In this document: piece by piece, positions 8,853 through 60,150 of the stretch | How positions within the stretch are numbered: position 1 is the stretch's first letter | Layout of the letters: every line of letters starts with the position of its first letter | Virus record (IMG/VR): IMGVR_UViG_3300029214_000148 | Length of the DNA stretch: 64,000 nt | Reading direction: 5' to 3' (one strand) | Origin: a virus | Notes under the pieces: generated by a model | What the model saw: the letters and a program-made list of their open reading frames with translations, nothing else | Told to the model about the DNA's origin: nothing | The model's database searches: none | Position numbers and translations under genes: made by a program

Positions 8853-8880
8853 TTGACGTTTTTTCAAATGGCTCAATATA
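8853..8880 (+). promoter_or_regulatory. family-1 conserved promoter (TTGACGTTTTTTCAAATGGCTCAATAT)
   Basis: one of at least 11 near-identical copies in the window. Confidence 0.5.
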
Positions 8881-8931
8881 TAAGGCGTAAGGAGAAAAAT
8901 GGGAAGAAAATAAACAAGAGAGGAATTTTTT

Positions 8932-9678
8932 ATGAATGAAAATGAAAGAAACGCAATTCTTGAATATGAGCAGATTTTACAAGGGAAAAGCTCCCGAACG
9001 AAGCTTTCAACGACGTATTTTAGGGCAGACTCAAACGAACAGAACCACAAGACGGCTGTCCATATTTTAAGATATATTTTCACAAAGATATACAAATGGA
9101 CACCGCTTGACGTAATGAATAAAGCATCAAAACAGATGATTTCTGATCTGAAGATCACAATCCCATATAGCAAACTGATTTTTCCAAAGGAAATGAATCC
9201 GAAAAGAGATTATTTCTACCTTGCAAAAATTCTGTTTCCGGAAGAAATCAAATCATTTGGGAAATACGACCGGGTTCTTTATCTATACAACCAAGTACGC
9301 CAAAGGAAAGCTCAGTTCCCGGAAGGGTATTTCTCAGAGCCGGGACAAGGAGAATACCGTGCAGGCATCTGCTTACACCAGGCAATCACTGATTCCCAGC
9401 AATTCCGGAATGAAGATGAACTTTATGAATTCTTTTCAGATGAGTCAAAGGCGCACGCTTTTTTGAAGAAATATAAGCTGGACAACGTATGTAGAATTAC
9501 ATTCCGAACACCTTTGGATTATCTATATGCAGCGCTTCCTGACGGACAGGACAAGCCTCTTTTGTACTTCAATCTTAAACTTCAAAAACTGTGTGAAGAA
9601 AAACAAATGCTCGGACAGTGGGATAACATGGTAAAAAAACACAAGAAATCCAAAAGCAAAAAACCAAAATATGCTTAA
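8932..9678 (+). CDS. hypothetical protein
   Basis: 248 aa, basic C-terminal tail, downstream of family-1 promoter. Confidence 0.5.
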   Translation: MNENERNAILEYEQILQGKSSRTKLSTTYFRADSNEQNHKTAVHILRYIFTKIYKWTPLDVMNKASKQMISDLKITIPYSKLIFPKEMNPKRDYFYLAKILFPEEIKSFGKYDRVLYLYNQVRQRKAQFPEGYFSEPGQGEYRAGICLHQAITDSQQFRNEDELYEFFSDESKAHAFLKKYKLDNVCRITFRTPLDYLYAALPDGQDKPLLYFNLKLQKLCEEKQMLGQWDNMVKKHKKSKSKKPKYA

Positions 9679-9801
9679 AGGATACAGGAGAAAAAATGAG
9701 AAAGACACATACTCACCGGGAACCAAAAGGAACTTTAAAGTGGTCGCTGTTGTTCAAACAATAACTATTACATTTCCGGCATGCAATGAGGTGGAGAGAT
9801 T

Positions 9802-10449
9802 ATGGCAATAAACTATGTAGTCCGTGTATCGGACGGGGAAAATGAAATTTACTACCAGCGCAAAAAGCTTTACGATATGGGACTACGTTTTAACAAGCGT
9901 GCCGGGCGAGGTGATTCTTTTTACGAAAAGAAGTGTGAAGAGAATGAAGCACACGCCATCGAGAAGTTTGCAGAACTCAATGGGTTAAAATGCATCCTTA
10001 TCCCGGAACAGTACACACGCTCTGATAATTACCGGAAAGAGTTCTTTAAGGCACAGAAACCGGTCAATAATGCACTGTACCGATGCGCTTACTGTGGTAA
10101 GAAATTCACATTCCAGCAGATCCAAGTTGACCATATTTTCCCTGTCAACGAACTTTCTTACAGCGGAATTGTAAGAAAGAGAGCAGCATCTTACGGAATC
10201 GCAAATGCCAATGATGTCAAAAACCTCTGCTGTGCATGTAAAAAGTGCAATCTGAAAAAAGGAACGAAACTCGGCATGTGGGTAATCCGTGGATTTCTCG
10301 GCAAGCATGAGGCGTACTGGAAGGTACGGCATATTGCAAAGGCAATAGTCTTCTGGTTATGCATTATATTTGCGATCTCCTTTTTAAAAGAAAATGCCCC
10401 GGAATTTTTCCAGACATTGACCAAGCTTTTCCTGTATCCTTTTGCATAA
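9802..10449 (+). CDS. HNH endonuclease domain protein with C-terminal membrane helix
   Basis: CAYCGKKF...VDHIFPV...CCACKKCNLKKG (HNH); hydrophobic C-terminus. Confidence 0.6.
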   Translation: MAINYVVRVSDGENEIYYQRKKLYDMGLRFNKRAGRGDSFYEKKCEENEAHAIEKFAELNGLKCILIPEQYTRSDNYRKEFFKAQKPVNNALYRCAYCGKKFTFQQIQVDHIFPVNELSYSGIVRKRAASYGIANANDVKNLCCACKKCNLKKGTKLGMWVIRGFLGKHEAYWKVRHIAKAIVFWLCIIFAISFLKENAPEFFQTLTKLFLYPFA

Positions 10450-10501
10450 GTCAAGAACCAAAAAACAGCAGCACGAAACGCAAAAAGAGGTAATATATGT
10501 A

Positions 10502-11073: not shown

Positions 11074-11100
11074 TTGACGATTGACAAAAAGGATCAATAT
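11074..11100 (+). promoter_or_regulatory. family-1 conserved promoter variant (TTGACGATTGACAAAAAGGATCAATAT)
   Basis: repeat family copy. Confidence 0.45.
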
Positions 11101-11150
11101 ATAAAGTGAAAATGTAATGAGCATTTTACATAAGAAAGAAGGAAAATTTT

Positions 11151-21231: not shown

Positions 21232-21258
21232 TTGACAATTTTCCAGATGGCGCAATAT
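21232..21258 (+). promoter_or_regulatory. family-1 conserved promoter (TTGACAATTTTCCAGATGGCGCAATAT)
   Basis: repeat family copy. Confidence 0.5.
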
Positions 21259-21261
21259 GTG

Positions 21262-21420
21262 TATTGTAAAGGTCATAAACCGGGCTGCCAGGGTTACCGG
21301 CTGGCAGAAATCCTTTCGAAAATGTTTACGCTTCCGGGAAAACCCGGAAAGGAGCAGGAGGACAGCAGCACATGCTGCTTCCGGGTGCGATTCCCGGATG
21401 CTTCTTTTACAAGACCGCAC
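21262..21420 (+). ncRNA. conserved structured leader RNA, copy A
   Basis: About 160 nt shared with copies at 33.1 and 38.2 kb. Nested hairpins GCTGCCAG/CTGGCAGC, CCGGGAAAACCCGG, GCAGCACATGCTGC, and a T-arm-like CCGGGTGCGATTCCCGG followed by a U-rich tract. Confidence 0.45.
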
Positions 21421-23841: not shown

Positions 23842-23868
23842 TTGACGTTTGTTTAAATGGCGCAATAT
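23842..23868 (+). promoter_or_regulatory. family-1 conserved promoter reading into a small CRISPR array
   Basis: TTGACGTTTGTTTAAATGGCGCAATAT about 75 nt upstream of the first repeat. Confidence 0.5.
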
Positions 23869-23945
23869 TCATAACGAAGGAAGTAAACAGTTAAAAATAA
23901 TCCCACGGGGATAGAGGTTAGTGAATAGCTTTAAGCCACTGTTAT

Positions 23946-24180
23946 AGTTGCACCACGCAAGGGTGCAGGGGTGAAATATTATACTGAATCGTCGCTGCCT
24001 GCATAGATATAGTTGCATCCCTTATGGGATGTATGGGTTGAAATTCAATAGAAACAGATGCATTCGGAGGTGTTACAAGTTGCACCCCCGCAAGGGGTGC
24101 ATGGGTTGAAAATAAGAAATGGTAGGAAGGAATTCAGATATGAACATTAGTTGCATCCCGCAAGGGGTGCAGGGTTGAAA
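23946..24180 (+). CRISPR. degenerate small array, 4 repeats (GTTGCACCCCGCAAGGGGTGCATGGGTTGAAAT-like), 3 spacers
   Basis: repeats at 23946, 24011, 24078, 24149 with spacers of 34-37 nt; spacer 2 near-identical to spacer 2 of the array at 41014. Confidence 0.7.
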
Positions 24181-24343
24181 TAAAAGGATGTTGCCATATA
24201 TGTCAACCGAACTCGGCTATTGAATAACCGAGCATGAGGAAGCGGTTCTTCGGAACCGATGAATCATCCAGTATGACTGGTGAAGCGATGGTATACATAT
24301 TTGAACAAATCAAACAAAAATACAGAATCAGAGGAGAAATAAC

Positions 24344-30321: not shown

Positions 30322-30348
30322 TTGACGATTTTTCAAAAGGCGCAATAT
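30322..30348 (+). promoter_or_regulatory. family-1 conserved promoter (consensus copy)
   Basis: TTGACGATTTTTCAAAAGGCGCAATAT. Confidence 0.55.
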
Positions 30349-30391
30349 GTGTAATGAAGACGAAAATAAGACGATTTTGGAGGGAGAAAAA

Positions 30392-33109: not shown

Positions 33110-33136
33110 TTGACGATTTTTCAAAAGGCGCAATAT
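33110..33136 (+). promoter_or_regulatory. family-1 conserved promoter
   Basis: TTGACGATTTTTCAAAAGGCGCAATAT. Confidence 0.55.
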
Positions 33137-33139
33137 GTA

Positions 33140-33290
33140 TAGTGTAAAGGTCATAAACCGAGCTGCCAGGGTTACCGGCTGGCAGAAAATCCTTTCGAAA
33201 AATGTTTACGTTCCGGGAAATCCCCGGAAAGGATAGTGGGTACGCAGCGCAAGTTATTCCGGGTTCGACTCCCGGATATCCTTTTTCAAA
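33140..33290 (+). ncRNA. conserved structured leader RNA, copy B
   Basis: same architecture as 21262..21420; T-arm-like CCGGGTTCGACTCCCGG. Confidence 0.45.
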
Positions 33291-33319
33291 ATTGCAGGAA
33301 AAATGTGGAGGAAAAGAGA

Positions 33320-35408: not shown

Positions 35409-35413
35409 ATAAG

Positions 35414-35485: not shown

Positions 35486-35489
35486 ATAA

Positions 35490-35646: not shown

Positions 35647-35728
35647 TGCGCCGGGGAGGACTCGAACCTCCGGTGTTTCTTTGTGGCTGATTTACAGTCA
35701 GCTGCTGTCGCCTCTGAGCCACCGACGC
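35647..35728 (-). tRNA. tRNA-Tyr (anticodon GTA), class II
   Basis: Acceptor GCGTCGG/CCGGCGC; anticodon stem GCTGA-CTGTAAA-TCAGC; long variable arm. Confidence 0.6.
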
Positions 35729-35733
35729 ATAAG

Positions 35734-35806
35734 CTGGTCCGGAGGGTCTCGAACCCTCAACGCCCCGGTTAACAGCCGGGTGCTCTACCATTGAGCTACG
35801 GATCAG
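35734..35806 (-). tRNA. tRNA-Asn (anticodon GTT)
   Basis: Anticodon stem CCCGG/CCGGG; loop CTGTTAA; D-arm GCTC-AATGGTA-GAGC. Confidence 0.6.
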
Positions 35807-35878
35807 AGCATGTGACGGGTCTCGAACCCGCCCGTCCTGCTTGGAAGGCAGGTGTGCCGCCAACAACACTTCACATGC
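35807..35878 (-). tRNA. tRNA-Gly (anticodon TCC)
   Basis: Acceptor GCATGTG/CACATGC perfect; anticodon stem CCTGC/GCAGG; loop CTTCCAA; A at position 8. Confidence 0.6.
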
Positions 35879-36431
35879 ATGCGGATAAAAGAAGTGCCTG
35901 TTTTCTCTTATCCATTCAGTTTTTTACCGCATCGCTGCGGAGTGGACAGGAGTGGTAACGATCCACCCTGTAAGGATTTTCAGTCCTTCGCTAATCCATC
36001 TCAGCTACCTGTCCATGGCTTTTTCTGCAATAAAAAAGCCGCATCAAGAAATTTCCTCTTCTCTCTGCGGTCATCTGCGTTTTGCAATATTTCGGTTTTA
36101 AGTGCCTGGTTTAAAATCGAAATCGACCGCGGGAAGGTGTATCATAATAGTTCTGTCCCCATGTTTTCCCGGATTTTGAGCATGAGAAACTAAACATATT
36201 GCTGAAATCGCCGTATGTTCTACAATCATTATTAAAATTTTTACTACTCATCATCTTTAACATGGTTTTCTTTTCCTTTCATTTTAATTAATGCTGGATA
36301 AACAAAAAGCCCGTCACTTAACTCAAAGCTACACATCCAAATAGCTCTGAGTTAAAAGACAGGCACTTCTTTTATCTCATGCACCTATCATATCATACTG
36401 ATCGTGAAGTGTCAACAGGAAATTTAAAAAA

Positions 36432-36500
36432 GGTTATTTTTGGTTATTTTGGTTATTTTTCAAAATAAAACAAAATAAAACAAAATAAAACAAATAAAAA
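36432..36500. repeat. tandem repeats GGTTATTTT x3 and CAAAATAAAA x4
   Basis: read directly, in the 3-prime flank of the minus-strand gene. Confidence 0.6.
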
Positions 36501-37234: not shown

Positions 37235-37261
37235 TTGACGAAATTTCAAAAGGCGCAATAT
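37235..37261 (+). promoter_or_regulatory. family-1 conserved promoter, divergent from the minus-strand family-2 promoter
   Basis: TTGACGAAATTTCAAAAGGCGCAATAT. Confidence 0.5.
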
Positions 37262-37289
37262 ATGTAATGAAAGGAGGAGGAAATACAAA

Positions 37290-37622
37290 TTGGAATGTTT
37301 GACATGCAAGAAACACTGGTCGCAGGGAGGCCGCTATTCAGAGAACGTGAGAAACTGCCTGCATTATGAGGAAGAACCAAGAGGAAAAATGGTCCGCACA
37401 GAACTGTCTTTTCGTATGGATGCAGAGGCGGAAACTCCGGTGGTCAGATTTGGAGAGAAAATACTGGTTTCCGATGGTTCAAAAGCGGTCGAGATGACTG
37501 TGGTCAAGATCAACTGGGTTAATCTTCGGGATATGCTCTGCAATGTATCCGCGGATTATCATGAGAATGAGATGCCGCGATTTGAGAAAGAAAAGAAGTT
37601 CAAAGCATTACATGGAAAATAG
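37290..37622 (+). CDS. hypothetical protein
   Basis: 110 aa; TTG start after AGGAGGAGG; its stop abuts a small CRISPR array. Confidence 0.4.
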   Translation: MECLTCKKHWSQGGRYSENVRNCLHYEEEPRGKMVRTELSFRMDAEAETPVVRFGEKILVSDGSKAVEMTVVKINWVNLRDMLCNVSADYHENEMPRFEKEKKFKALHGK

Positions 37623-37728
37623 TTGCATTCCAGTGGAATGCATGGGGTGAAAGAAATAGGCAAATCGCATGACAATTTCTGAAATTAAATTGTTGCGCTC
37701 CCGTGGAGGGGGGCGTATGGATTGAAAT
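37622..37728 (+). CRISPR. small array, 2 degenerate repeats + 1 spacer, in the 3-prime UTR
   Basis: GTTGCATTCCAGTGGAATGCATGGGGTGAAAG / 38-nt spacer / GTTGCGCTCCCGTGGAGGGGGGCGTATGGATTGAAAT. Confidence 0.55.
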
Positions 37729-38135: not shown

Positions 38136-38162
38136 TTGACGATTTTTTAAATGGCGCAATAT
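38136..38162 (+). promoter_or_regulatory. family-1 conserved promoter
   Basis: TTGACGATTTTTTAAATGGCGCAATAT. Confidence 0.55.
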
Positions 38163-38335
38163 GTATCATGTAAAGGTCATAAACCGAGCTGCCAGGGTTA
38201 TCGGCTGGCAGAAATCTTTTCGATATTTGTTTACACTCCGGGGAAACCCGGAAGGGGTAGTGAGGACGCAGCGTGTGCTGTTTCCGGGTTCGATTCCCGG
38301 GTATCCCTTTTGACTGCCACATACGGTCTTCTCAA
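38163..38335 (+). ncRNA. conserved structured leader RNA, copy C
   Basis: same core as copies A and B; T-arm-like CCGGGTTCGATTCCCGGG; followed by about 250 nt of extra leader before the gene. Confidence 0.45.
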
Positions 38336-39317: not shown

Positions 39318-39422
39318 GCTGCATCATGTGCGGGGGTGTATGGATTGAAATGTCGGAGTATGGTGTAAGAATCATATATATTCCTACGTTGTGCTCCTCC
39401 CGGTTGGTGCATGGGTTGAAAT
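39318..39422 (+). CRISPR. small array, 2 degenerate repeats + 1 spacer, in the 3-prime UTR
   Basis: GCTGCATCATGTGCGGGGGTGTATGGATTGAAAT / 36-nt spacer / GTTGTGCTCCTCCCGGTTGGTGCATGGGTTGAAAT. Confidence 0.5.
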
Positions 39423-40993: not shown

Positions 40994-41013
40994 GTAAGAA
41001 GATATACTTTACT

Positions 41014-41232
41014 GTTGCGCCCCATTGGGTGCATGGGTTGAAATCTTTATGACCTTCTGAAAAGTGAGGGCATCTTAGTTGCACCCCCGCAAGGGATGTA
41101 TGGGTTGAAATTCAATAGAAACAGATGCATTCGAAGGCGTTACAAGTTGCACCCCGCGAGGGGTGTATGGGTTGAAATTGCAGAAAGCTCAGGATTGGAA
41201 GGTTGCATCCTATGGGATGCATGGATTGAAAC
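41014..41232 (+). CRISPR. small array, 4 degenerate repeats + 3 spacers
   Basis: repeats at 41014, 41078, 41146, 41202; spacer 2 (TCAATAGAAACAGATGCATTCGAAGGCGTTACAA) matches spacer 2 at 24044 with 2 mismatches. Confidence 0.7.
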
Positions 41233-41336: not shown

Positions 41337-41363
41337 TTGACGATTTTTTAAAAGGCGCAATAT
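41337..41363 (+). promoter_or_regulatory. family-1 conserved promoter
   Basis: TTGACGATTTTTTAAAAGGCGCAATAT. Confidence 0.5.
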
Positions 41364-41598
41364 ACATATTGAAGGGATAAACAGGGGCTTACCGTTTGTT
41401 TCTTCAATAAGAGTTTTTCTCTTATATGCCTCCTTAAGTTTCCTGCGCTGCATTTACAGCATTTTGGCAGCGCAGGGGGAATCCACAGGACTGCATTTGA
41501 CGTTGTGTGGCGGCCTGCTCATCCGGTTCAACCCCGGAGGATTCCCATACCGCTTATTTTTGCGGAGACAAAAATTTTAAAAAATATTCAAAAATTCT

Positions 41599-41625
41599 TT
41601 GACGATTTTTTTAAAGGCGCAATAT
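41599..41625 (+). promoter_or_regulatory. family-1 conserved promoter upstream of the cas operon
   Basis: TTGACGATTTTTTTAAAGGCGCAATAT; leader shares GAAGGAATAAACAGGGGCTTGCCG with the 41337 copy. Confidence 0.55.
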
Positions 41626-41678
41626 GTGTATTGAAGGAATAAACAGGGGCTTGCCGCTGTTGATTACCAGAGTTAAAA

Positions 41679-41707
41679 GTTGTGCCCCTATGGGGTGCAT
41701 GGGTAAT
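41679..41707 (+). repeat. solo degenerate CRISPR repeat in the cas5 5-prime UTR
   Basis: GTTGTGCCCCTATGGGGTGCATGGGTAAT; hairpin retained, 3-prime handle degenerate. Confidence 0.5.
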
Positions 41708-41718
41708 AAGAGAAAGGA

Positions 41719-42393
41719 ATGGAAAAAGAAAAAATGGGAGTGAAACTAAAAGTCTGGGGAGATTACGCATTGTTCACCAGACCAGAACTGAAAACTGAAC
41801 GGTATACATACGATGTGATGACACCGTCGGCGGCTAGAGGAATTCTGGAATCTATCTACTGGCATCCGGGACTTCGGTGGTATGTAGACAAGATTCATGT
41901 ATTAAATCCGATTGCCACTACGAGCGTGAGAAGAAATGAACTTCTCAGTAAGATACCAAAGTCAAATATGCTGCAGGCATACAACGGCGGGGATGTGAAA
42001 CTGTATAACTCGTCAAGAGACGATATTATCCAGAGGGCATCTGTTATTCTCCGGGATGTCTGCTATGTGATTGAGGCGCATTTTGAAATGACAGGGAAAG
42101 CGAGCCCAACAGACAGCCCGGCAAAGTTTATAAGTATCTTTAACAACAGGGCAAGAAAAGGGGCATGTTATTCGATGCCGTATTTTGGTGTAAGGGAATT
42201 CCCGGCACACTTTGAACTCTGCGAAGGAGATGAAAAGATCCCATCCTACTATGAAGGACTTTCGGATAAGGATCTCGGGCTGATGCTTTATGATCTGGAT
42301 TACTCCTGCGGTAGAGATATCCAGCCAATGTATTATCATGCGATTATGAAAAACGGCGTTATTGACGTTGGGAACAGTGAGGTGCTTCGATGA
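41719..42393 (+). CDS. cas5: Cas5c (Cas5d), type I-C
   Basis: KLKVWGDYALFTRPELKTERYTYDVMTPSAARGILESIYWHP matches the Cas5d N-terminal signature. Confidence 0.85.
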   Translation: MEKEKMGVKLKVWGDYALFTRPELKTERYTYDVMTPSAARGILESIYWHPGLRWYVDKIHVLNPIATTSVRRNELLSKIPKSNMLQAYNGGDVKLYNSSRDDIIQRASVILRDVCYVIEAHFEMTGKASPTDSPAKFISIFNNRARKGACYSMPYFGVREFPAHFELCEGDEKIPSYYEGLSDKDLGLMLYDLDYSCGRDIQPMYYHAIMKNGVIDVGNSEVLR

Positions 42394-44129
42394 TCTTTCA
42401 GTCACTTGTGAAATTATATGAAACACTTGCGGATCAGGGAAAAGTGTCCCGTCCTGGCTGGTGTAATGCAAAGGTATCCTATGCGGTGGTTTTAAACCAT
42501 GATGGGACGATTAAAGATATTGTTTCCGTGAAACAGAAAGTGAAGAGAGGAAAGAAGACTGTTGAAATTCCAATAATTATGCAGGTTCCAGAGATGGTCA
42601 CCCGCGCTAACAACATTGCCTCCAGCTTTCTCTGCGAAAATGCAAAGTATCTCTTTGGAATTGACGAAAAGATGAGTTTGCGTACACTGGAATGTTTTAA
42701 GGCGGCAAAGAAAAAACATCTTGATATTCTTGATGTTGTGGATTCACCTGTAGCACAGACGGTATGTAACTTTTTCCGTTCATGGGATCCGGAACAGGCG
42801 TTGGATCAACCGGCTGTTGCAAAACTTGCAGAAGAGTTTTATAAAGGCGGAAACCTCGTTTTTGAAGTAGATGGGGAATATGTGCATGATGATGAAGAAG
42901 TCCGCAGGGCATGGATGGATTACAGCAGTGTACCATATGAAATGGTAACTGGAAGATGCCTTATTACTGGAGAGGAAGCGGAGATTGCCCGCACGCACGG
43001 GAAAATCAAAGGAGTTCCGGGAGCACAGTCATCTGGCGCGTCGCTTGTATCATTTAACGGAGCATCCCTTGAGTCTTATGAAAAAACACAGAGCTACAAC
43101 GCGCCGATTAGCACCTATGCGGCGTATGCATATGTGACCGCGCTGAATTACTTGCTTTCTACGGACGGGTATCACAGCAAGGTAGGAGATTCCATGGTGG
43201 TTTTCTGGACAGATTCCGGGGATGTGGATGATGTGAGCAGACTGCGGAAGATGATGGGAAATATCAATGAAAAGGATCACACCCTTACAGATACGGATGA
43301 AAAACTGTACGTCCTCTGCCTTGCACCAAATGCCGGGCGAATTGCAGTCCGGTTCTTCTATGAGGATGCGATCGGGGCAATCTGGGAAAACCTGTCCGAA
43401 CATGCCAGCCGGATGAAGATTGTAAAACCAGTATTTGAGGATCAAGAATTTATCAATATCTGGCAGATGCTCATGGAGACAGTCAACCAGAATCTTACAG
43501 ATAAAACACCTGTCCCGCATATGTCAGCAATGACGTTACAGTCAGTCATTTCGGATACACCGTATCCGCAGAGTCTGTATGCAGGTGTGTTATCTCGTAT
43601 CCGCGCGGAGCACAAAGGTGTTACTTACAGAAAAGCATCGATTATTAAAGCTTTTTTAATAAAGAACTACAAATGGGAGGAAGGAAAAAATATGGAAGCA
43701 TTAAATGAAGGCTGTAAGGATCGGGCATATATCCTTGGAAGACTGTTTGCGGTTATGGAAAAGGCACAGAAAGAAGCAGTTGGCAATATCAACCAGACAA
43801 TTTGTGATAAGTTTTACAATTCCGCGTGCACAACACCAAGATCGATCTTTCCAGTACTGATCAGGCTATCTAACAGTCATTTAAGTAAGTTGAAACGGAC
43901 AAAACCGGGGAGAGGATATTATTTTACAGCTAAAATGCAGGATTTAATGGATAAAATTCCGGTAACAGATGATGATCCGGGATTTCCGCGGCGTTTCTCA
44001 TATGAGGATCAGGGTAAGTTTGCACTTGGTTATTATCATCAGATGCGGGCGGAATATACAAGCAGTAAGTTAAAAGATAATGATTCAGAAGGTGATCAGA
44101 CAAATGCAGAGAATATGGAGGAAAACTAA
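42390..44129 (+). CDS. cas8c: Cas8c (Csd1), type I-C large subunit
   Basis: 579 aa between cas5c and cas7c; N-terminus MIFQSLVKLYETL typical of Csd1. Confidence 0.7.
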   Translation: MIFQSLVKLYETLADQGKVSRPGWCNAKVSYAVVLNHDGTIKDIVSVKQKVKRGKKTVEIPIIMQVPEMVTRANNIASSFLCENAKYLFGIDEKMSLRTLECFKAAKKKHLDILDVVDSPVAQTVCNFFRSWDPEQALDQPAVAKLAEEFYKGGNLVFEVDGEYVHDDEEVRRAWMDYSSVPYEMVTGRCLITGEEAEIARTHGKIKGVPGAQSSGASLVSFNGASLESYEKTQSYNAPISTYAAYAYVTALNYLLSTDGYHSKVGDSMVVFWTDSGDVDDVSRLRKMMGNINEKDHTLTDTDEKLYVLCLAPNAGRIAVRFFYEDAIGAIWENLSEHASRMKIVKPVFEDQEFINIWQMLMETVNQNLTDKTPVPHMSAMTLQSVISDTPYPQSLYAGVLSRIRAEHKGVTYRKASIIKAFLIKNYKWEEGKNMEALNEGCKDRAYILGRLFAVMEKAQKEAVGNINQTICDKFYNSACTTPRSIFPVLIRLSNSHLSKLKRTKPGRGYYFTAKMQDLMDKIPVTDDDPGFPRRFSYEDQGKFALGYYHQMRAEYTSSKLKDNDSEGDQTNAENMEEN

Positions 44130-44130
44130 G

Positions 44131-45042
44131 ATGAGCACACCAATTAAGAACAGATATGATTTCGTAGTATTATTCGACGTAGAGAATGGAAATCCGAACG
44201 GTGATCCGGATGCCGGAAATATGCCGAGAGTTGATCCAGAGACTGGCATCGGGCTTGTGACAGATGCCTGCATAAAGCGCAAGATCCGTAACTATGTGGA
44301 AACTGTAAAAGAAGATGCAGCCGGGTTCAAGATCTATATTAAAGAGGGGGTCCCGCTGAACCGGAGTGACCTTAAGGCAGTCGAAAGTCTTGGTATTGAC
44401 GTCGGTGACGACAAAAATGCACTTGAAGATGTAAAGAAGCTGAAAAAGACAGATGAAGATGTGGATCTTAAGCTCCGTGACTATATGTGTAGTAATTTCT
44501 ATGATATCCGTACATTTGGTGCTGTCTTGACTACCTTTACAAAGGCGGCATTAAACTGTGGGCAGGTACGTGGCCCGGTACAGATTGGTTTTGCAAAAAG
44601 TATTGATCCTGTTTTCAGCCAGGATATTACTGTAACCAGAGTTGCAATCACAACGGAAAAGGATGCGGAAAAGAAAAATACAGAAATGGGAAGAAAGAGT
44701 ATTATTCCTTATGGACTTTACCGTGTGGAGGGATATATTTCTGCTAATCTTGCCCGTAAGACCACCGGCTTTTCTGAAGACGATCTGGAACTGCTTTGGG
44801 AAGCAATCATTAACATGTTTGAGAATGACCATTCCGCAGCACGCGGGAAGATGGCAGTGCGTGAGCTCATCGTATTCAAGCATAACAGCGAGCTTGGCAA
44901 TTGTCCATCGTACAAACTGTTTGAAACTGTTGATGTTAAGAAGAATGATGGTGTTGAGTTTCCTCGTAAATATTCCGATTATGCAGTGACTATTCATGAG
45001 GATGCGATTCCGGATGGCGTGACAATGACTCGCAAAATCTAA
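44131..45042 (+). CDS. cas7: Cas7c (Csd2), type I-C
   Basis: VLFDVENGNPNGDPDAGNMPRVDPETGIGLVTDACIKRKIRNY is the Csd2 signature; start ATG after TGGAGGAAAACTAAG. Confidence 0.85.
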   Translation: MSTPIKNRYDFVVLFDVENGNPNGDPDAGNMPRVDPETGIGLVTDACIKRKIRNYVETVKEDAAGFKIYIKEGVPLNRSDLKAVESLGIDVGDDKNALEDVKKLKKTDEDVDLKLRDYMCSNFYDIRTFGAVLTTFTKAALNCGQVRGPVQIGFAKSIDPVFSQDITVTRVAITTEKDAEKKNTEMGRKSIIPYGLYRVEGYISANLARKTTGFSEDDLELLWEAIINMFENDHSAARGKMAVRELIVFKHNSELGNCPSYKLFETVDVKKNDGVEFPRKYSDYAVTIHEDAIPDGVTMTRKI

Positions 45043-45292: not shown

Positions 45293-46069
45293 GCTACGCC
45301 CCATGGAGGGCGTATGGATTGAAAATTGTATAGCCATCCCTGACAGCTTCCTCATTAGACGCTACGCCCCATGGAGGGCGTATGGATTGAAAATCTATAC
45401 TCTATTATGTGATGTACTAATGTCGCTGCTACGCCCCATGGAGGGCGTATGGATTGAAAATGATTGTTATTGGTTTTTATTCATGGAGAGGAAAGCTACG
45501 CCCCATGGAGGGGCGTATGGATTGAAAAGTAAGGTTTCGTCTCGAAGCCTTTATTCTGTTTTGCTGCGCCCCATGGAGGGGCGTATGGATTGAAATACCA
45601 AAATCTTTTGACATTCTTATAAATGGTAACAGCTACGTCTTATGGGGTACGTATGGATTGAAATCATAATAATTGTAGAGATCTCAATACAAAATAAAGC
45701 TGCGTCTCATGGAATACGTATGGATTGAAATGAAAAGGCGAGTTTGCGAAAGCAGATATTGGAATGTTGCGTCTCGTGGAGTACGTATGGATTGAAATTC
45801 CAACTTTAACTACATAACTATCCTGATAAACTTGCTGCACCCCATGGATAGTGTATGGATTGAAATTTAAAAAATCATGGATAACATCTGCGATAAGACG
45901 TTGCACCTCGCTAGGGGTGTATGGGTTGAAATTTCCATAATCGGTAGCCAATTATTATCATTAGGTGTTGCACCCCATAGAGGGTGTATGGATTGAAATT
46001 ATATAAAAATGATGAATATGTAAAAAAAATAAAAGAGTTACGCTCCATGGAGTGCGTATGGCTTGAAAC
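45293..46069 (+). CRISPR. type I-C-like array, 12 repeats in three repeat subfamilies, 11 spacers
   Basis: Repeats every 66-70 nt. Subfamily 1: GCTACGCCCCATGGAGGGCGTATGGATTGAAAAT (R1-R5). Subfamily 2: GCTGCGTCTCATGGAATACGTATGGATTGAAAT (R6-R8). Subfamily 3: GTTGCACCCCATAGAGGGTGTATGGATTGAAAT (R9-R11). R12 is degenerate. 3-prime handle GTATGGATTGAAAT conserved throughout. Confidence 0.8.
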
Positions 46070-49056: not shown

Positions 49057-49545
49057 ATGAATACGTTGGAAAATTTAGAAATGGTATTGTTTGACTTTGA
49101 TGATACGCTGTGCATACATAATCATCGCTCGGATGCTTATGAGGAAATGATGGAATATTTGTCATATATTCATTCAGGTGAAACATTTCCAAAATCATGG
49201 AATAAATCAAAACCGAATTTGCAGTTAAAGAAATTCATGGATTATCTTGCTTATAAGAATATCCCTATGGGTTTAATCAGCGGAGTGCGTGATTGTAAGA
49301 CTGCGGAAAGAAAGATCAAATGGGTTAAAGAAAATTACGGTTATTTACTGGAAAATTACTGTGTATCCAGTCAGGAACAGAAGATCATTGAACTTAAGGT
49401 CCTTGCAAAGGTTAACAGGCTTCATGAAAACCAGATTGCTATTATCGACGATTTGTATCCCAATCTTGAAAAAGCAGAAAGTGAGGGATTCGTTGCTCTT
49501 TCACCAATGCAGATTGTCAATATGTTCAATGAAGTATCTGAGTAG
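49057..49545 (+). CDS. HAD-superfamily hydrolase, deoxyribonucleotidase-like
   Basis: motif I MVLFDFDDTL; motif IV-like IIDDL. Confidence 0.55.
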   Translation: MNTLENLEMVLFDFDDTLCIHNHRSDAYEEMMEYLSYIHSGETFPKSWNKSKPNLQLKKFMDYLAYKNIPMGLISGVRDCKTAERKIKWVKENYGYLLENYCVSSQEQKIIELKVLAKVNRLHENQIAIIDDLYPNLEKAESEGFVALSPMQIVNMFNEVSE

Positions 49546-49713
49546 AAGTCTGCTGCAAGGATTATTCCATGCAAGATATGTTGAGAGATAATTTGTTGAA
49601 TTAGAGGTGATTATATTGGATTTATTTGGAAGAGATTTATGAACCCAAGCAGATGAAGATTTTTTAGGTAGAAAGTGTTATTTGTTGCAGAGTACGGTTG
49701 GAAGGGGATTTTA

Positions 49714-50520
49714 ATGAATAAGTTGGAAAATTTAAAAATGGTATTGTTTGACTTTGATGATACATTGGCTGTACATAGTCAAGGACATCGCATAAGCGAT
49801 CATCTGATGAAATATATGATTAACGTGCATTCTGGAAGTAAAGAATTATGGAATACCTCGAAACCGAATTTACAATTAAAAAAATTCATGGATTATCTTG
49901 CCTATAAGAATATCCCTATGGGATTGATTAGTGGAGTACATGATTGTAAAGCCGCGGAAAGAAAAATCGAATGGGTCAAAGAAAACTATGGGTATTCATT
50001 AGAGAATTATTGTGTATCCAGTCAAGAACAGAAGATGATTGAATTATCAACCATTGCAGAGGTTAATGGATTTCATGAAAGCCAGATTGCTCTTGTTGAT
50101 GACTACTATGAAAATCTCGGAAATGCTGAAAAAATGGGATTTACAACATTTTCTCCTATGGAAATTGTTAATTTGGTTAATTGCTTTCAAAAATCCTGGG
50201 GGGGGAAGATAAATTTACGAAATAAATACATATTCTGGGATATAGACGGCACTTTAGCGGCATACCGGTTTAACGGGCATGTTTCAGATCCGGAAGGTAC
50301 CGATAATGGTATGAGTTTAAAAGAAATCGAGGATGGGGTTTTATCGGAAGACAAATCAAAAGCAGATACCATTTTGCAATACTGTAAGGATCATGATATT
50401 AGCTTGCAAGATGTGGTATTTGTTGATGACACGATTCCATTTCTCCGCGAAGCAGAGCGAAAAGGGATTAAATCATTTCATATCAGCAGTTTTTTGGATT
50501 GGGATTTCGAAAGGAGGTAA
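49714..50520 (+). CDS. tandem HAD-domain hydrolase
   Basis: first domain paralogous to 49057 (MVLFDFDDTL); second DxDGT motif IFWDIDGTL in the C-terminal half. Confidence 0.55.
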   Translation: MNKLENLKMVLFDFDDTLAVHSQGHRISDHLMKYMINVHSGSKELWNTSKPNLQLKKFMDYLAYKNIPMGLISGVHDCKAAERKIEWVKENYGYSLENYCVSSQEQKMIELSTIAEVNGFHESQIALVDDYYENLGNAEKMGFTTFSPMEIVNLVNCFQKSWGGKINLRNKYIFWDIDGTLAAYRFNGHVSDPEGTDNGMSLKEIEDGVLSEDKSKADTILQYCKDHDISLQDVVFVDDTIPFLREAERKGIKSFHISSFLDWDFERR

Positions 50521-52773: not shown

Positions 52774-52788
52774 TTTCTTGCGGAGCAG

Positions 52789-52861
52789 AGCAGAGGAAGG
52801 CTCACCGGGCTCATGACCTGGGTGTCGGATGTTCGATTCCTTTCTCCGCAATTAATTTTAA
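52789..52861 (+). tRNA. tRNA (anticodon CAT; Met or Ile2) on the plus strand
   Basis: Acceptor TGCGGAG/CTCCGCA perfect; D-arm GAGC/GCTC; anticodon stem CCGGG/CCTGG; loop CTCATGA; weak T-stem GGATG/CCTTT; C at position 8. Confidence 0.5.
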
Positions 52862-54366: not shown

Positions 54367-54533
54367 GTGGGATGTTTTACCCGACTGACGGAAACGAATA
54401 CGAGATCAATATTCCATCTCCAGTGATACATGACTCTAAAGAAGAAGCTATGGCTGATGGAAACTTTGGTTACCGCTTTATACAGATAGATAGATCGGTT
54501 GGACCGGTAATCGTTATATTTGAAAGTCAATAA
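54363..54533 (+). CDS. small hypothetical protein, ATGA-coupled
   Basis: 56 aa; start overlaps the upstream stop. Confidence 0.3.
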   Translation: MSGMFYPTDGNEYEINIPSPVIHDSKEEAMADGNFGYRFIQIDRSVGPVIVIFESQ

Positions 54534-54845
54534 CCCATCACTAAAGTGACGGGCTTGTGTTTCAGCCACTACACAGTGGATATGCAGGCCCGATATTGAC
54601 TAGCCTAAGTGCTTCGGGCACTACGTTAAGAGAGAATACATAGTTACCTGCGGATGTAATGCCTAGTCTGCAGCAATAAGGGGACGTATTAAACAGTTTC
54701 ATTGGGGTGGAACAGTGTGCGGCAGATAAAGATGTACCTTTATCTCTTATCCATATAAACCTCTCTTAACATTGGCGAAGGCATTTTAACCACACTTCGG
54801 TGTGAGTACTTAAATCCGAAAGGATTTCAGAAAGGAGCATGACCT
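54534..54845 (+). ncRNA. putative IscB omega RNA (OMEGA guide RNA scaffold)
   Basis: 312-nt GC-rich noncoding tract directly abutting the iscB start, with multiple hairpins; position matches the known upstream omega-RNA arrangement of IscB loci. Confidence 0.5.
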
Positions 54846-56102
54846 ATGGTTTATGTGTTATCAAAAACCGGACAGCCTTTGATGCCGACAGAGAACCATG
54901 CAAAGGTCCGTGTTCTGTTAAAACAGCAAAAGGCAAAAATAGTACACGGCTGTCCGTTTACCATACAGTTGCTGTATGACAGTACAGACTATACACAGCC
55001 GGTAAGTCTTGGCATTGATGCCGGAAGCAGGCATATCGGCGTATCTGCCACTACGGAAACGAAAGTCCTGTACGAAGCAGATGTGACACTCAGAAACGAC
55101 ATCGTGGATCTTTTATCTACACGCCGGGAAGCACGGCGCACCAGAAGAAGCCGAAAGACTCGCTACCGCAAGCCGCGGTTCAATAACAGAACCCGCAAGG
55201 ACGGCTGGCTGGCTCCGTCCATACAGCAGAAGGTGGATACGCACCTTACTACGGTGCGCAAGGTAACGGAGATACTTCCAGTAAACAGCATCACGGTGGA
55301 AACTGCATCATTCGATATCCAGAAGATCAAGAACCCGGACATAGCCGGTACTGGCTATCAGCAGGGCGAACAGCTCGACTTCTGGAACGTACGTGAGTAT
55401 GTACTCTTCCGTGACGGCCATAAGTGCCAGTGCTGTAAAGGGAAGTCAAAAGATCCAGTGCTTAACGTGCATCATATCGAAAGCCGTAAGACCGGAGGAA
55501 ACGCACCGAATAACCTGATCACACTCTGCGAAACATGTCACAAGGGCTATCATAACGGTACCGTAAGCCTGCCGAAAAACATCAGGCGCGGCATGAAATT
55601 TAACGATGCTGCATTTATGGGTATCATGCGGTGGGCCTTTTTCAACAGGGTAAAGGAGACCTACGAGCCGCTTGGCATCATGGTAAAAATGACATATGGC
55701 TATATCACAAAAAATACAAGGATAGAGCACGACCTGCCGAAGGACCACTTCATCGATGCCAGATGTATCAGCGGGCACCCGGATGCAACAAGTGACGGTA
55801 CAGTCTTTTATCAAAAGAAAGTGCGCTGTCATAACCGCCAGATCCATAAACAGAAGATATTAAAAGGCGGTATCCGCAAACGGAACCAGGCCCCGTACCT
55901 GGTGAAAGGATTCCGGCTGTTTGAAAAAGTCAAATACCACGGGAAACAGTATTTTATCTTTGGCAGAAGGAGCAGCGGTTTTTTCGACATAAGGACTTTA
56001 GATGGCACCAAAGTAAATAAAGGCAGTGTAAGCTGTAAAAAGATCAGATCTTTGGACATGCCACGTAGCTATTTAACAGAAGAAAGAAAGGCAATAGTTT
56101 AG
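54846..56102 (+). CDS. iscB: IscB RNA-guided nuclease (PLMP domain, split RuvC with HNH insert)
   Basis: PLMP motif LSKTGQPLMPT; RuvC-I LGIDAGSRHIGVS; Arg-rich bridge helix RREARRTRRSRKTRYRKPRF; HNH CQCC...HHIESRKTGGNAPNNLITLCETCH; RuvC-III HFIDA. Confidence 0.8.
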   Translation: MVYVLSKTGQPLMPTENHAKVRVLLKQQKAKIVHGCPFTIQLLYDSTDYTQPVSLGIDAGSRHIGVSATTETKVLYEADVTLRNDIVDLLSTRREARRTRRSRKTRYRKPRFNNRTRKDGWLAPSIQQKVDTHLTTVRKVTEILPVNSITVETASFDIQKIKNPDIAGTGYQQGEQLDFWNVREYVLFRDGHKCQCCKGKSKDPVLNVHHIESRKTGGNAPNNLITLCETCHKGYHNGTVSLPKNIRRGMKFNDAAFMGIMRWAFFNRVKETYEPLGIMVKMTYGYITKNTRIEHDLPKDHFIDARCISGHPDATSDGTVFYQKKVRCHNRQIHKQKILKGGIRKRNQAPYLVKGFRLFEKVKYHGKQYFIFGRRSSGFFDIRTLDGTKVNKGSVSCKKIRSLDMPRSYLTEERKAIV

Positions 56103-57590: not shown

Positions 57591-59413
57591 GAAAAGGACA
57601 GATTAAATTACTGGAAAAAGCAGAAAAAGAAGGATTTACAGAAGAACAGCTGGCTGTATTGCGTGGCAATCAGATGTTATGCACTTTAGATTATTATTAC
57701 TTTTTGCTGAAGCGTGGTGTTTCTGCTTCTGTAATTAATGCAATCATCAAAGCTGGTGAAGGATGGGGAATGGATTCGTTTGGATTCCAGTTGATGGAAT
57801 GTGGTTATTCATTGGAGGATATCCTTACATATATTGAGAAAAGCAAAAAGCTGTTACTTAATCATAATTATTTTTACGAAGAGATCATGACAGGGAAAAG
57901 TAAAAATGAAACTGATGTGTCTTTGCGTAAAAGCTATGCAGAAATACTTATACAGATTCCCGAATTATTGAGTTGCCGTGATGCATATATTACAAAGGCT
58001 GTCGAATTTGCAATCAATTCACGAATTTCAGTGAAAGATTTTATTGAGGAATTTTTCCCAAAGGAAGAGGATAGCTGGAAGGTCTTTAGAAACGGAAATT
58101 ATAAAGATAGCCAGTATACCGCTTTACTTTCTTTTTGGCGTAACCATATTCCACATTTATCAGACTTGTTATTGCCCAATGACAACAGTTTGTTTTTGTT
58201 TTACGAGCAGAAAGAAGTAGCTTTGGAAGATCAGATGAAACTTTTTATGGAAGCATGGAAAGCCCTTAACCATGTAACAGGGAAAGAACATTTCATTAAA
58301 ATAAAAGACTGCCCCATGTACTACAGGAGTATTGACATTAATAAGTCAGCAGTTAATATTTATCTGGCTTCGTCTTCTTATACAAATATTAACAATGGCG
58401 AATTCCATTTTGATGTATCGGAAGTATCTATGAAACTGGTCATTTTCCATTCCGGTGGATATTACTATAAAGGTTTCAAAGACCGGCTATTTCCGATTTC
58501 CATAAAGAAATTAAGTTCCATATGGAATGATTATGGAAATCTTGGAAAACAGGTGGTTACATTCATCCTTGGACATGCAATGGAAAAATTAAATGCCCTG
58601 GTCATGAAGGATATCCTGCGGACATTTGAAAAAGATAATTTTATGCTGCTTCCAATCAGACTTATCGACTGCCGGGATTCGTATAATTACAATCATCTGC
58701 TTCAGAAGAGGTGGGTTGCTGCGGATAAGATCAACTGGAACAGAACAGACGTCAACCTTGCTTACCTCGTAATTAAAAGTCTTCCGTACCTGGGACGTGA
58801 AAGCGATAAAAAACGATTATTACAGACAAAAGATACATCCCTGCTTGATGTGGTGGATTCTTCCTTCTGGAAGAGGAGATGGAACAACAAATGTATTTCC
58901 ACTTTCCTCGGATGCTTTATTGCAGGCGGTATCAGTGATGTGCCTGAAGATGGCGATCTGGATAATGTCAGAATCACAGCAGATGATTACATAAAAATGG
59001 CACACGAGATGCACCAAAAGGTTAAGCTTGGGTTCCGTAGCTGGAAGAAACTTAAGGATGCGCATGACAAAATATCAAAGAAATACAAAAATCGACTTCA
59101 CCGGGTGCATGTTCCAAAGAACAGCAAGTTCAACCATCTGAGGGAACTGCTCCCGGAATCCTATGAATGGATCCGTACAGGCAGCCGTCTCCGCATGGAA
59201 GGTATTGAGATGGGACACTGTGTGAATTCTTACTGGCAATACATAAACCAGGATACCTGTGCCATATATTCCTTTACAGCAGGAGAAAAACGCTACACTG
59301 CAGAATTCCGTGTTGACAGGAACGGGAAATATACGGTTAAGCAGATCCAGTCAAAGTATGACAGGGGGTGTCCGGCTTCTGTCCGGAAACAGGTGGGTAA
59401 GTTGATTTCCTAA
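57587..59413 (+). CDS. PcfJ-like protein, translationally coupled to the methyltransferase
   Basis: C-terminal RMEGIEMGHCVNSYWQY...KYDRGCP resembles the PcfJ family of conjugative plasmids; TTG start overlapping the upstream stop. Confidence 0.4.
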   Translation: MRKGQIKLLEKAEKEGFTEEQLAVLRGNQMLCTLDYYYFLLKRGVSASVINAIIKAGEGWGMDSFGFQLMECGYSLEDILTYIEKSKKLLLNHNYFYEEIMTGKSKNETDVSLRKSYAEILIQIPELLSCRDAYITKAVEFAINSRISVKDFIEEFFPKEEDSWKVFRNGNYKDSQYTALLSFWRNHIPHLSDLLLPNDNSLFLFYEQKEVALEDQMKLFMEAWKALNHVTGKEHFIKIKDCPMYYRSIDINKSAVNIYLASSSYTNINNGEFHFDVSEVSMKLVIFHSGGYYYKGFKDRLFPISIKKLSSIWNDYGNLGKQVVTFILGHAMEKLNALVMKDILRTFEKDNFMLLPIRLIDCRDSYNYNHLLQKRWVAADKINWNRTDVNLAYLVIKSLPYLGRESDKKRLLQTKDTSLLDVVDSSFWKRRWNNKCISTFLGCFIAGGISDVPEDGDLDNVRITADDYIKMAHEMHQKVKLGFRSWKKLKDAHDKISKKYKNRLHRVHVPKNSKFNHLRELLPESYEWIRTGSRLRMEGIEMGHCVNSYWQYINQDTCAIYSFTAGEKRYTAEFRVDRNGKYTVKQIQSKYDRGCPASVRKQVGKLIS

Positions 59414-59697
59414 TCGGTACCGGAAACAAAACTGCCGTAAGGAAAACATGACATGCGGATTTTTATGTCATCCTTTAAATACGGAATAAGATCGGAGATT
59501 CGATAATAAATCATGGGTTTTAAATTTGAAGAAAAAACGTCAGCTTAAAATGCACTGAGTGCGGTCAGGATTACGAAGATACGCAGATAATTGTGAATGG
59601 TGTTCCGAGCTGCAAATTCCACATATGTCCGGAATGTCAAAGAAAGTTTGAGAAAGTTTTTGGAAAGATCAAGGAAGTAATAAGAAAGTGGTAGGAA

Positions 59698-60042
59698 ATG
59701 AGTACATGTTTTTTGATTCTTGGAATTATTTGTATAGTTGCTGGAGTTGCTGGAATAATTCTCGAAATATACGGATGGGGTAGTCGTAATAAGAGACCTA
59801 TTGCGGTTTGCGAAGGTATTATGGCTGTATTATTAGGCATTGGAATGATTCTAGGACGAAATGAAAAAACTTATGATGAAATACAGGAAGAACTTGAGTC
59901 AGAAGCTATTGAAAACTATGATAATGGTTCAGAAGTTTATATCAATGGCAAGAAAAACAATGACATAGACATTAACGGTATTAATCTTGATAGATACAAT
60001 ATTAAAATCAAGGAAGGAAAAATTTACTTGATTGATAAATAA
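59698..60042 (+). CDS. membrane protein with conserved C-terminal module (paralog of 48394)
   Basis: C-terminus INGINLDRYNIKIKEGKIYLIDK. Confidence 0.45.
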   Translation: MSTCFLILGIICIVAGVAGIILEIYGWGSRNKRPIAVCEGIMAVLLGIGMILGRNEKTYDEIQEELESEAIENYDNGSEVYINGKKNNDIDINGINLDRYNIKIKEGKIYLIDK

Positions 60043-60120
60043 GCAGCCAAAACACAGTTCCATATTCATGATATAGGACTGTGTTTTTTGTAAGAAAATA
60101 AATAAAATTTTAAATTTCCT

Positions 60121-60150
60121 TTGACGAATTCTGAGATGGATAAATATATA
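60121..60150 (+). promoter_or_regulatory. family-1 promoter variant
   Basis: TTGACGAATTCTGAGATGGATAAATATAT. Confidence 0.35.

Follow-up and report, generated by a model that had tools for sequence, protein, structure and literature searches.

What are the near-identical, uniformly oriented motifs that recur along a DNA filed as viral, and which factor directs RNA polymerase to them? The question is raised by IMG/VR virus record IMGVR_UViG_3300029214_000148, of which a stretch of 64,000 nucleotides (nt), hereafter the window, was analyzed. The original prediction described at least 11 copies of a nearly invariant promoter between 8853 and 60150 and proposed that the sigma-70 family gene at 5139..5849 encodes the factor that recognizes them. 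We conclude that the motif, here called class 1, very probably represents a family of strong promoters. These copies together head most transcription units of a conjugative element. Based on comparative sequence analysis, there is about an even chance that they are read by the element's own sigma factor, which is similar to SigN of the Bacillus subtilis plasmid pBS32.

A position weight matrix (PWM) built from the 11 predicted copies and scanned over both strands recovers each of them at its predicted plus-strand coordinate, where direct reading also finds it, and adds a twelfth at position 69 that had been missed. All 12 copies lie on the plus strand and score between 21 and 59 bits. No class-1 site above 8 bits occurs on the minus strand of the window, and the top score in 20 Markov-shuffled windows was 5.3 bits. 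Furthermore, a repeat finder recovered the motif family independently (families D1, D4 and D9), and one further copy lies just upstream of the window on the same contig. The description of the motif as nearly invariant holds for seven copies, which carry at most three mismatches to the 27-mer first proposed (0 expected by mismatch search), and fails for the other five; the full set of mismatch counts is 0, 0, 1, 2, 2, 2, 3, 4, 4, 6, 8 and 10. Still, all 12 copies agree at 14 positions: T1 T2 G3 A4 C5, A16, G18 G19, A23 A24 T25 A26 T27 and G35, where the first T of the -35 box is position 1 and G35 lies 35 nt from that T.

The layout of class 1 consists of an A/T-rich tract that resembles an upstream (UP) element, a -35 box reading TTGACG, a T/A-tract spacer that ends in GG(C/A)(G/T)C, an AATAT core and the invariant G35. 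The 45 nt preceding the copies are 64-89% A+T, compared with 59% for the window as a whole. A distance of 17 nt separates the TTGAC and AATAT blocks in each of the 12 copies, and the same spacing is kept in all of the related clades described below. Scans for the two halves of the motif (UP region plus -35 box; GG..AATAT..G) found neither half alone as a strong site, and thus the motif is one bipartite unit. A minus-strand site at 59640 scores well for the upstream half (17.8 bits; TTGACA with an A/T tract) but has no ATAT module. It is antisense to the end of the PcfJ-like gene, where it may act as a promoter of divergent or antisense transcription.

The case for promoter function is built on the position, orientation and bipartite layout of the copies and on the nature of the features downstream. 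All 12 are intergenic and point in the same direction as the feature that follows. Either the start codon or the first repeat of a CRISPR array lies 21-136 nt away, or the copy abuts a conserved small RNA (sRNA). The copies had been said to precede genes, arrays and the cas operon, which is correct, and the sRNAs had gone unmentioned. The units headed by class-1 copies comprise partition, the type IV secretion system (T4SS), a type I-C Cascade that lacks Cas3, a CRISPR mini-array, the three sRNAs, which are tRNA-like, and several genes of unknown function. Two features that need promoters, the cas operon and CRISPR array A, each have a class-1 copy.

The copies are dispersed, with 0.26-19 kb between them. 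The most divergent, at 69..103 (TTGACG..GGATCAATAT..G35; 21.5 bits, 10 mismatches, all 14 invariant positions kept), heads a parA/VirC1-like gene at 151 and a penicillin-binding protein (PBP) gene at 999. The copy at 8853..8887 precedes a 248-amino acid (aa) DUF4046-like gene at 8932 and is the syntenic site used for comparison across clades, and the copy at 11074..11108 heads an operon that runs into genes for PrgI (13718) and a VirB4/TraG-like ATPase (14303). Three copies are followed directly by sRNAs: 21232..21266 by sRNA copy 1 (21266-21412) and then a ResIII helicase gene at 21472, 33110..33144 by sRNA copy 2 (33144-33291), and 38136..38170 by sRNA copy 3 (38170-38316). The copy at 33110 has the exact consensus, as does that at 30322..30356, which lies before a small open reading frame (ORF) at 30392 and then a flotillin/SPFH gene at 31116. 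For CRISPR mini-array A (repeats 24012-24183), the leader promoter is the copy at 23842..23876, and the copy at 37235..37269 precedes a 110-aa ORF at 37290 and then two repeat-like units whose ends are at 37653 and 37728. The copy at 41337..41371 would drive a non-coding transcript of about 190 nt, the first ~27 nt of which are common to the cas leader. The cas5d-cas8c-cas7 operon (41719-45042), with a degenerate CRISPR repeat in its 5' untranslated region (UTR), follows the copy at 41599..41633. The last copy, at 60121..60155, lies before a 481-aa ORF at 60243.

The sRNAs are useful for placing the site of transcription initiation. They are three paralogs of about 140 nt, all on the plus strand, that start at the predicted transcription start site and end in a run of T residues. 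Among the paralogs, the 6-7 nt after ATAT vary, and conservation resumes at T34/G35 and continues down to the T-run, which makes G35 the likely first transcribed nucleotide. A start at this position would define a 16-bp spacer and an AATATR hexamer at positions 23-28, with an invariant A at -11 and a purine at -7. Thus, we infer that transcription starts at G35 and that AATATR at 16-bp spacing is the -10 element.

Base pairing is predicted between the 5' AAAGG of the sRNAs and their 3' end. The 3' portion looks like part of a tRNA: it has a T-arm (GGGTTCGA(T/C)TCCC) and a stem resembling an acceptor, in which there seems to be covariation (GGAGCA/TGCTTC versus GGATA/TATCC). No Rfam family matches them at threshold; the best scores were 16.8 bits for sR40 (E 0.27) and 15.5 bits for tRNA-Sec (E 1.2), and the Tymo tRNA-like family scored 11 bits.

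The genes in the window are those of a conjugative element. Annotation with Pfam and NCBIfam identified a class A PBP, a dUTPase, the sigma gene and topoisomerase III, as well as an HNH protein, PrgI, the VirB4/TraG-like ATPase, PcfJ, DNA methylases, the flotillin-like protein and IscB with a HEARO RNA. The ParA/VirC1-like gene has a weak match that falls below the cutoff. Nearly all of the genes are on the plus strand, the G+C (GC) content is about 41%, and no phage structural genes were seen among the annotated genes of the window. A phage origin was considered and rejected: the phage collection gave no megablast match, the motif matches in IMG/VR are at chance level and have no flanking features, so that the strict motif is absent there as a genuine site, and the gene content is conjugative. 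The element also does not correspond to a known plasmid. Its sole match in PLSDB is a 132-nt topoisomerase segment, and the sigma factor has no tblastn match there (1e-3).

Among 185,579 genomes (596 Gb), the strict motif was found only in related elements of Lachnospiraceae, in the isolate MGYG-HGUT-00136 and in the chromosome of Roseburia faecis JCM 17581. About 75 other matches agree with chance expectation and have no flanking features. In the stretches that were compared, the window also matches a 138.5-kb metagenome contig, OODT01000091.1, and a member of the 90% cluster to which the sigma factor belongs is annotated as coming from a Lachnospiraceae metagenome-assembled genome. Taken together, the gene content, the distribution of the motif and this cluster annotation establish that the window is part of a conjugative element of gut Lachnospiraceae.

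The motif had also been described as unlike sigma-A promoters, and this is only partly true. Its -35 box, together with the A/T-rich tract, is of the classic sigma-A/UP kind, matching TTGACA at five of six positions in 11 copies and at all six in copy 21232. The difference lies in the -10 element. When A at -11 and T at -7 were required with spacers of 16-18 bp, 11 of the 12 copies failed, and only copy 23842 (AATATT), the sole one with T at -7, passed. No class-1 copy has a TG extended -10, and a sigma-70 scan of window regions did not call the copies at 8853 and 11074. The same element carries a textbook sigma-A-type promoter for comparison, TTGACA-17-TATGAT at 36387..36415 on the minus strand, which precedes an ORF and 13 clustered tRNA genes on that strand. 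This internal contrast, together with the failed -10 test, indicates that class 1 is a distinct class. Relative to canonical sigma-A promoters with UP elements (rrn P1 type), class 1 is similar in its A/T-rich upstream tract, near-consensus -35 box, 16-bp spacer and purine start, but differs in lacking both T at -7 (11 of 12 copies) and TG and in having an extra conserved GG..C block. The idea that class 1 and the tRNA promoter have an upstream module in common was rejected because the latter gave no score in a PWM scan with the upstream half. As for the tRNA locus itself, its 13 genes (34509-36014, minus strand) lie in an otherwise plus-strand element, behind both the promoter (36415-36387) and a short tandem-repeat tract (36432-36499). 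A lone tRNA-Met gene is located at 52778-52852 on the plus strand.

The proposed sigma-70 family gene is real. The ATG at 5139 opens a plus-strand reading frame (5139..5849) for a 236-aa protein with sigma-2, a basic linker and sigma-4. The protein passes the sigma-70 superfamily model TIGR02937 (58.6 bits, cutoff 42.9), and its Pfam matches are Sigma70_r4 at 30.5 bits (above cutoff) and Sigma70_r2 at 19.5 bits (below cutoff). Its regions 2 and 4 match RpoS and SigA in a search of PDB sequences. In an AlphaFold2 (AF2) model, a basic, disordered linker of about 50 aa connects two helical domains and sigma-3 is missing, and all leading Foldseek matches to this model are sigma subunits in RNA polymerase complexes. 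The WW dyad of region 2.3/2.4 is missing (the protein reads YVNPAIRAAL), and the -35 recognition helix of region 4.2 has T-K-Q where sigma-A has T-R-E. None of the subfamily models, including that for extracytoplasmic function (ECF) sigma factors, reaches its cutoff. Assignment to the ECF group (group 4) was rejected in any case, given that the promoter is TTGACG / AATAT rather than of the AAC / CGT types and that the adjacent ORF encodes topoisomerase III, with no anti-sigma-like ORF.

This sigma family is narrow, consisting of close relatives with 85-100% identity, a clade at 56% and more distant relatives at 30-38%. A word-indexed search returned only 9 sigma clusters, and the 30-38% relatives were found only by an exhaustive hidden Markov model (HMM) search. 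At every relative locus retrieved, the gene order PBP - dUTPase - sigma - (thyA) - topoisomerase III - DUF4046-like - HNH is kept. Some relatives carry two or three tandem sigma paralogs at the syntenic position (locus L104, 265-2544; locus L099, 10001-11438). Genes for an XRE-type helix-turn-helix protein and a LexA_DNA_bind-like protein lie just upstream of the paralogs in L099, which hints at a switch that controls the sigma factor.

The syntenic site before the DUF4046-like gene permits the promoter to be compared among these clades. It reads TTGACG-N12-GCTCAATAT in relatives with 85-100% sigma identity, TTGACG-N12-CCGCTATAT in the 56% clade, and TTTACT-N12/13-TG(C/T)(T/C)CATAT where the sigma factors are 30-38% identical. 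In all clades, ATAT occupies positions 24-27 and position 35 is a purine. The sixth base of the -35 box is G in 11 of the 12 window copies, A only in copy 21232, and T in all clade C/D copies. These alignments are suggestive of a promoter layout that is conserved and whose details may track the sigma clades.

A different promoter-like element lies directly upstream of the sigma gene, at 5090..5138 on the plus strand (TTTCACATT-N6-GTAAAC..GAAAGGAG). This class-2 architecture runs from an intrinsic terminator through TTTCAYATT-N6-GTAAAC-N12-16-GAAAGGAG to the ATG, where GAAAGGAG is the ribosome-binding site (RBS). Sites of this class in the window are at 5090, 16962, 17694, 18749, 19285 and ~20540 on the plus strand and at 38104 on the minus strand; they also precede a run of small single-gene cassettes between 16.9 and 21.1 kb. 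In distant relatives, class 2 lies before all sigma paralogs apart from the one that opens a tandem set, and in loci L106, L099, L102 and L104 it is also found before thyA, topoisomerase III, dUTPase, methylase and many small genes. Class-2 sites outnumber class-1 sites 12 to 3 in L106. The two classes have the ATAT-N7-G(T)AAA module in common. T at -7 is found in class 2, which has no -35 box; class 1 has the -35 box and lacks this T.

The closest precedent is SigN (ZpdN) of B. subtilis pBS32, which uses 17 mapped and 2 predicted near-identical promoters that are confined to the plasmid (Burton et al. 2019, PMC6751061). The SigN promoter consensus is TTTACGTTTT...GATATAA, in which a T-tract comes after TTTACG. 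The GATA of 16 of 17 promoters begins at position 21, and for 11 of 17 the mapped +1 falls at position 35, counted from the first T (PMC6751061, Table 2). These promoters have a non-T residue at -7 and are SigN-dependent despite their sigma-A-like look, with reporters rising 100-fold on induction (PMC6751061). Both systems feature a plasmid-encoded sigma factor of two-domain size (199 aa for SigN, 236 aa here) and a comparable number of promoters (17 mapped plus 2 predicted on an 84-kb plasmid versus 12 in 64 kb). The two sets of promoters are similar in layout, with TT(T/G)ACG, a T-tract, a conserved block just 5' of an ATA-containing -10 element and a non-T residue at -7. Moreover, position 35 is the mapped +1 in one and the invariant G35 in the other, and A24-T25-A26 coincide. 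The two proteins each have Y..P..R in place of the WW dyad, and the -35 helix has T-R-Q in SigN and T-K-Q here.

There are also clear differences between the two systems. SigN has a SigN-dependent promoter before its own gene, whereas the element sigma gene has no class-1 copy there. The SigN regulon concerns nucleotide metabolism, replication and cell death after DNA damage, in contrast to the T4SS, partition, Cascade, CRISPR and sRNA units of the present element. The -10 sequences differ (CCAGATATAA versus GGCGCAATAT), and pBS32 is a non-conjugative plasmid of Bacillus, unlike this conjugative element of Lachnospiraceae. Furthermore, SigN dependence is experimental on pBS32 and inferred here.

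Given these data, it seems reasonable to propose, at roughly even odds of being correct, that class-1 promoters are read by the element's SigN-like sigma factor (5139-5849). The two-domain protein would direct RNA polymerase to class-1 sites, while its own gene would be expressed from a different promoter, either class 2 or sigma-A-type. Class 2, which serves establishment genes and the sigma gene, might be read first, after which the sigma factor would read class 1 to express T4SS, maintenance and CRISPR functions. The outcome would be an early-to-late cascade and an element-restricted regulon, like that provided by SigN on pBS32. The placement of class 2 before establishment-type genes and of class 1 before T4SS and maintenance operons fits such a cascade. 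In addition, only class 1 offers a conserved -35 box for the conserved sigma-4 helix. The proposal that this gene encodes the dedicated factor is made plausible by a genuine two-domain sigma factor that is syntenic in relatives, promoter variants that track clades and resemblance to SigN, and is called into question by the lack of a class-1 motif upstream of the gene and by class 2 as a rival target.

Numerous observations weigh against this assignment. No class-1 motif was found by PWM in the region upstream of the sigma gene (4843-5138), and no sigma gene is present in the 8-kb motif loci of R. faecis and MGYG-HGUT-00136, where only those 8 kb were covered. Sigma factors of the 100% and 56% clades have different 4.2 helices (TKQCINYRQ versus TKQAICYNV), yet the -35 box is identical. 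Relatives with two or three sigma paralogs have no more promoter classes than relatives with one. Because all sigma-bearing loci are syntenic relatives, the co-occurrence of sigma factor and motif is phylogenetically non-independent. Class 2 is a second non-canonical promoter-like class that complicates the assignment: it could be the target of the sigma factor instead of class 1, and one sigma factor may possibly read both classes. The preference of sigma-A and of the RNA polymerase alpha subunit C-terminal domain for a TTGACG -35 box with a UP-like tract could compensate for a weak -10 element. Similarity between SigN (locus L098, 31325-31924) and the element sigma factor is marginal, at 23% identity over 150 aa in a single BLASTP comparison (E 5e-4) and an hhalign probability of 39%. 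A PWM test of the -10 register against SigN promoters scored offsets 0, 2 and 4 alike; owing to ATAT periodicity this test does not discriminate, so it is given no weight as support, and the SigN similarity is taken as architectural and not as proven homology. Finally, both the start site and the sigma dependence are deduced from sequence comparisons.

The most serious competing explanation, which we consider possible though rather unlikely, is that host sigma-A reads class 1 through its consensus -35 box and UP tract despite the weak -10 element, leaving the element sigma factor to serve another set such as the class-2 TTTCATAWT sites. That set would then include the sigma factor's own gene, which would create positive feedback as at PsigN3. 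The near-consensus -35 box, the A at -11 that is invariant in the 16-bp register and the UP-like upstream tracts are all compatible with sigma-A, and partition genes and CRISPR arrays would be expected to be constitutive. Class-2 sites outnumber class-1 sites in clade D, sigma-70-like candidates are present in the 296-nt region upstream of the sigma gene, and the module common to both classes might mean that one sigma factor reads both. However, 11 of 12 copies lack T at -7, none has a TG extended -10, and the consensus A at position 6 of the -35 box occurs only in copy 21232, with G in the other 11 and T in clade C/D. The GG..C block conserved at -18 to -13 serves no function in sigma-A promoters, and class 2 offers the sigma-4 helix no -35 box to bind. 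SigN promoters, moreover, look equally sigma-A-like, yet their reporters respond 100-fold to SigN (PMC6751061).

Conservation that reaches beyond both hexamers could alternatively reflect an operator for an element-encoded global repressor or activator acting over ordinary promoters, like KorA/KorB on IncP plasmids. In that case, the spacer T/A tract, the GGCGC block and an upstream TTTTCC, which recurs 8-10 nt 5' of the -35 box in many copies and in relatives, would be parts of the binding site; control of T4SS, par and cas genes by one regulator is common on plasmids. We regard this explanation, which is compatible with either sigma assignment, as improbable. The motif has no dyad symmetry (TTGA/TCAA pairing exists in only 3 of 12 copies), the distance from TTTTCC to the -35 box varies, and no candidate regulator gene was identified adjoining the sites. 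Furthermore, variation within the element and from clade to clade falls on the spacer and GG(N)(N)C positions; the hexamer-like positions stay the same, as does the distance between them. A dispersed repeat on a mobile element that also carries IscB/HEARO might even be a transposase or recombinase site, or a partition (centromere) site, rather than a promoter, but this has almost no chance of being correct. All 12 copies have one orientation, none is paired as inverted termini or flanks a mobile unit, and every copy is directly 5' of, and co-oriented with, a gene, sRNA or array. Nor are the copies clustered like parS sites, and the IscB locus (54526-56102) has no adjoining copy. A recombinase site, which the original prediction had named as its possible undoing, is thus unsupported.

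If the element's own sigma factor does read class 1, for which the chances are close to equal, then the system is of a known kind, a mobile-element sigma factor whose promoter set is restricted to the element, and is found here in a family of conjugative elements of gut Lachnospiraceae that is unstudied. The sigma cascades of phages (SPO1 gp28 and gp33/34; T4 gp55) are similar in that a mobile element's own sigma factor redirects host RNA polymerase to element-specific promoters and that the sigma gene is read from a different, earlier promoter class. They are unlike the present system because this element is conjugative (PrgI, VirB4-like, PcfJ) and the promoter sequences are unrelated. The Hodor megaplasmids, which are conjugative, are large Bacillota elements of the human gut that have been mistaken for huge phages, with a GC content of 44.6-47.1% (preprint PMC12934698) compared with about 41% here. 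Sigma factors and promoters are unmentioned in that preprint, and membership of the present element in the Hodor group was considered and is not established.

A type I-C Cascade (cas5d, cas8c/csd1 and cas7) is encoded at 41719-45042, and no cas3, cas1, cas2 or cas4 gene was found among the scanned ORFs of the window. Five arrays or mini-arrays with degenerate repeats are scattered at 24012-24183, 37621-37728, 39319-39422, 41012-41232 and 45293-46069. The transcripts from 41337 and 41599 share their first ~27 nt, GAAGG(G/A)ATAAACAGGGGCTT(A/G)CCG (41371-41400 and 41633-41718). The degenerate repeat in the cas5 5' UTR, GTTGTGCCCCTATGGGGTGCATGGGTA, runs into the RBS and could be a site of autoregulation by Cas5d/Cascade. 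In R. faecis (locus L048, 7625-7668) and MGYG-HGUT-00136 (locus L064, ~1062-1100), class-1 promoters directly drive solitary repeat-like hairpins that end in ATGGATTGAAAT and are followed by spacer-like sequence, forming single units similar to CRISPR RNAs (crRNAs).

One spacer connects the CRISPR system to the promoters themselves. What appeared to be a partial thirteenth motif copy at 45598-45626 (repeat family D9) was rejected as a promoter because it is spacer E5, the fifth spacer of array E (45597..45631, plus strand), in register with the 67-68-nt period of the array. It contains the UP-proximal, -35 and spacer parts of class 1 and no ATAT/-10 module. Spacer E5 matches a class-1 variant, TTAACA..GGCAACATAT..G35, of R. 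faecis (NZ_CP173697; locus L048, 7816-7850) at 33 of 35 positions, and TTC lies immediately 5' of this protospacer. TTC is the protospacer-adjacent motif of type I-C systems. The match to the element's own promoters is only 15 contiguous nt, preceded by TTT and not TTC. From the E5 match and the TTC, it follows that the element carries a guide against a class-1-type promoter of a rival element, which suggests that promoters may be targeted in conflicts between elements. Since no cas3 gene was seen, such targeting is possibly a form of CRISPR interference (CRISPRi). Among the spacers, only E5 and the pair A1 (24045-24079) and D2 (41112-41145), which are duplicates differing at 2 positions in 34-35 nt, have a match in the window. 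No crRNA-like unit in the R. faecis or MGYG-HGUT-00136 DNA examined matches the window either.

A broader and more speculative view, which we judge to be unlikely as a whole, is that these components form an orthogonal and self-contained system. One SigN-like sigma factor and one promoter type would serve conjugation, partition, a Cas3-less type I-C Cascade with many promoter-equipped mini-arrays, and the tRNA-like sRNAs. Related elements would compete by gaining spacers against one another's sigma-specific promoters, as with E5, such that the promoter would be both the master switch and an Achilles heel silenced by CRISPRi.

Other features of the element are noteworthy in their own right. An IscB-omegaRNA unit occupies 54526-56102 on the plus strand, where a HEARO RNA (115.6 bits) is immediately 5' of the gene for a 418-aa RRXRR/HNH protein. 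Tandem gene duplications are present at 49057-50520 and 62341-63584 (families D5, D6, D11 and D16; 79-89% identity), and the duplicated ORFs have no Pfam match above threshold.

If the pairing of sigma factor and promoter is true, it would reveal an element-restricted regulon in gut Lachnospiraceae, a group with few genetic tools whose conjugative elements are almost unstudied. It would also yield a compact, orthogonal expression pair, consisting of a 236-aa sigma factor and a promoter of about 60 bp, for engineering gut Firmicutes. The same pairing would help in studying how conjugation and plasmid-borne CRISPR are turned on in such elements, and the spacer against a rival's promoter hints that class-1-type promoters are targets in inter-element conflict. 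Finally, the element sigma factor would be a second, phylogenetically distant plasmid sigma factor of the SigN type, suggesting that this type is widespread on Bacillota plasmids.

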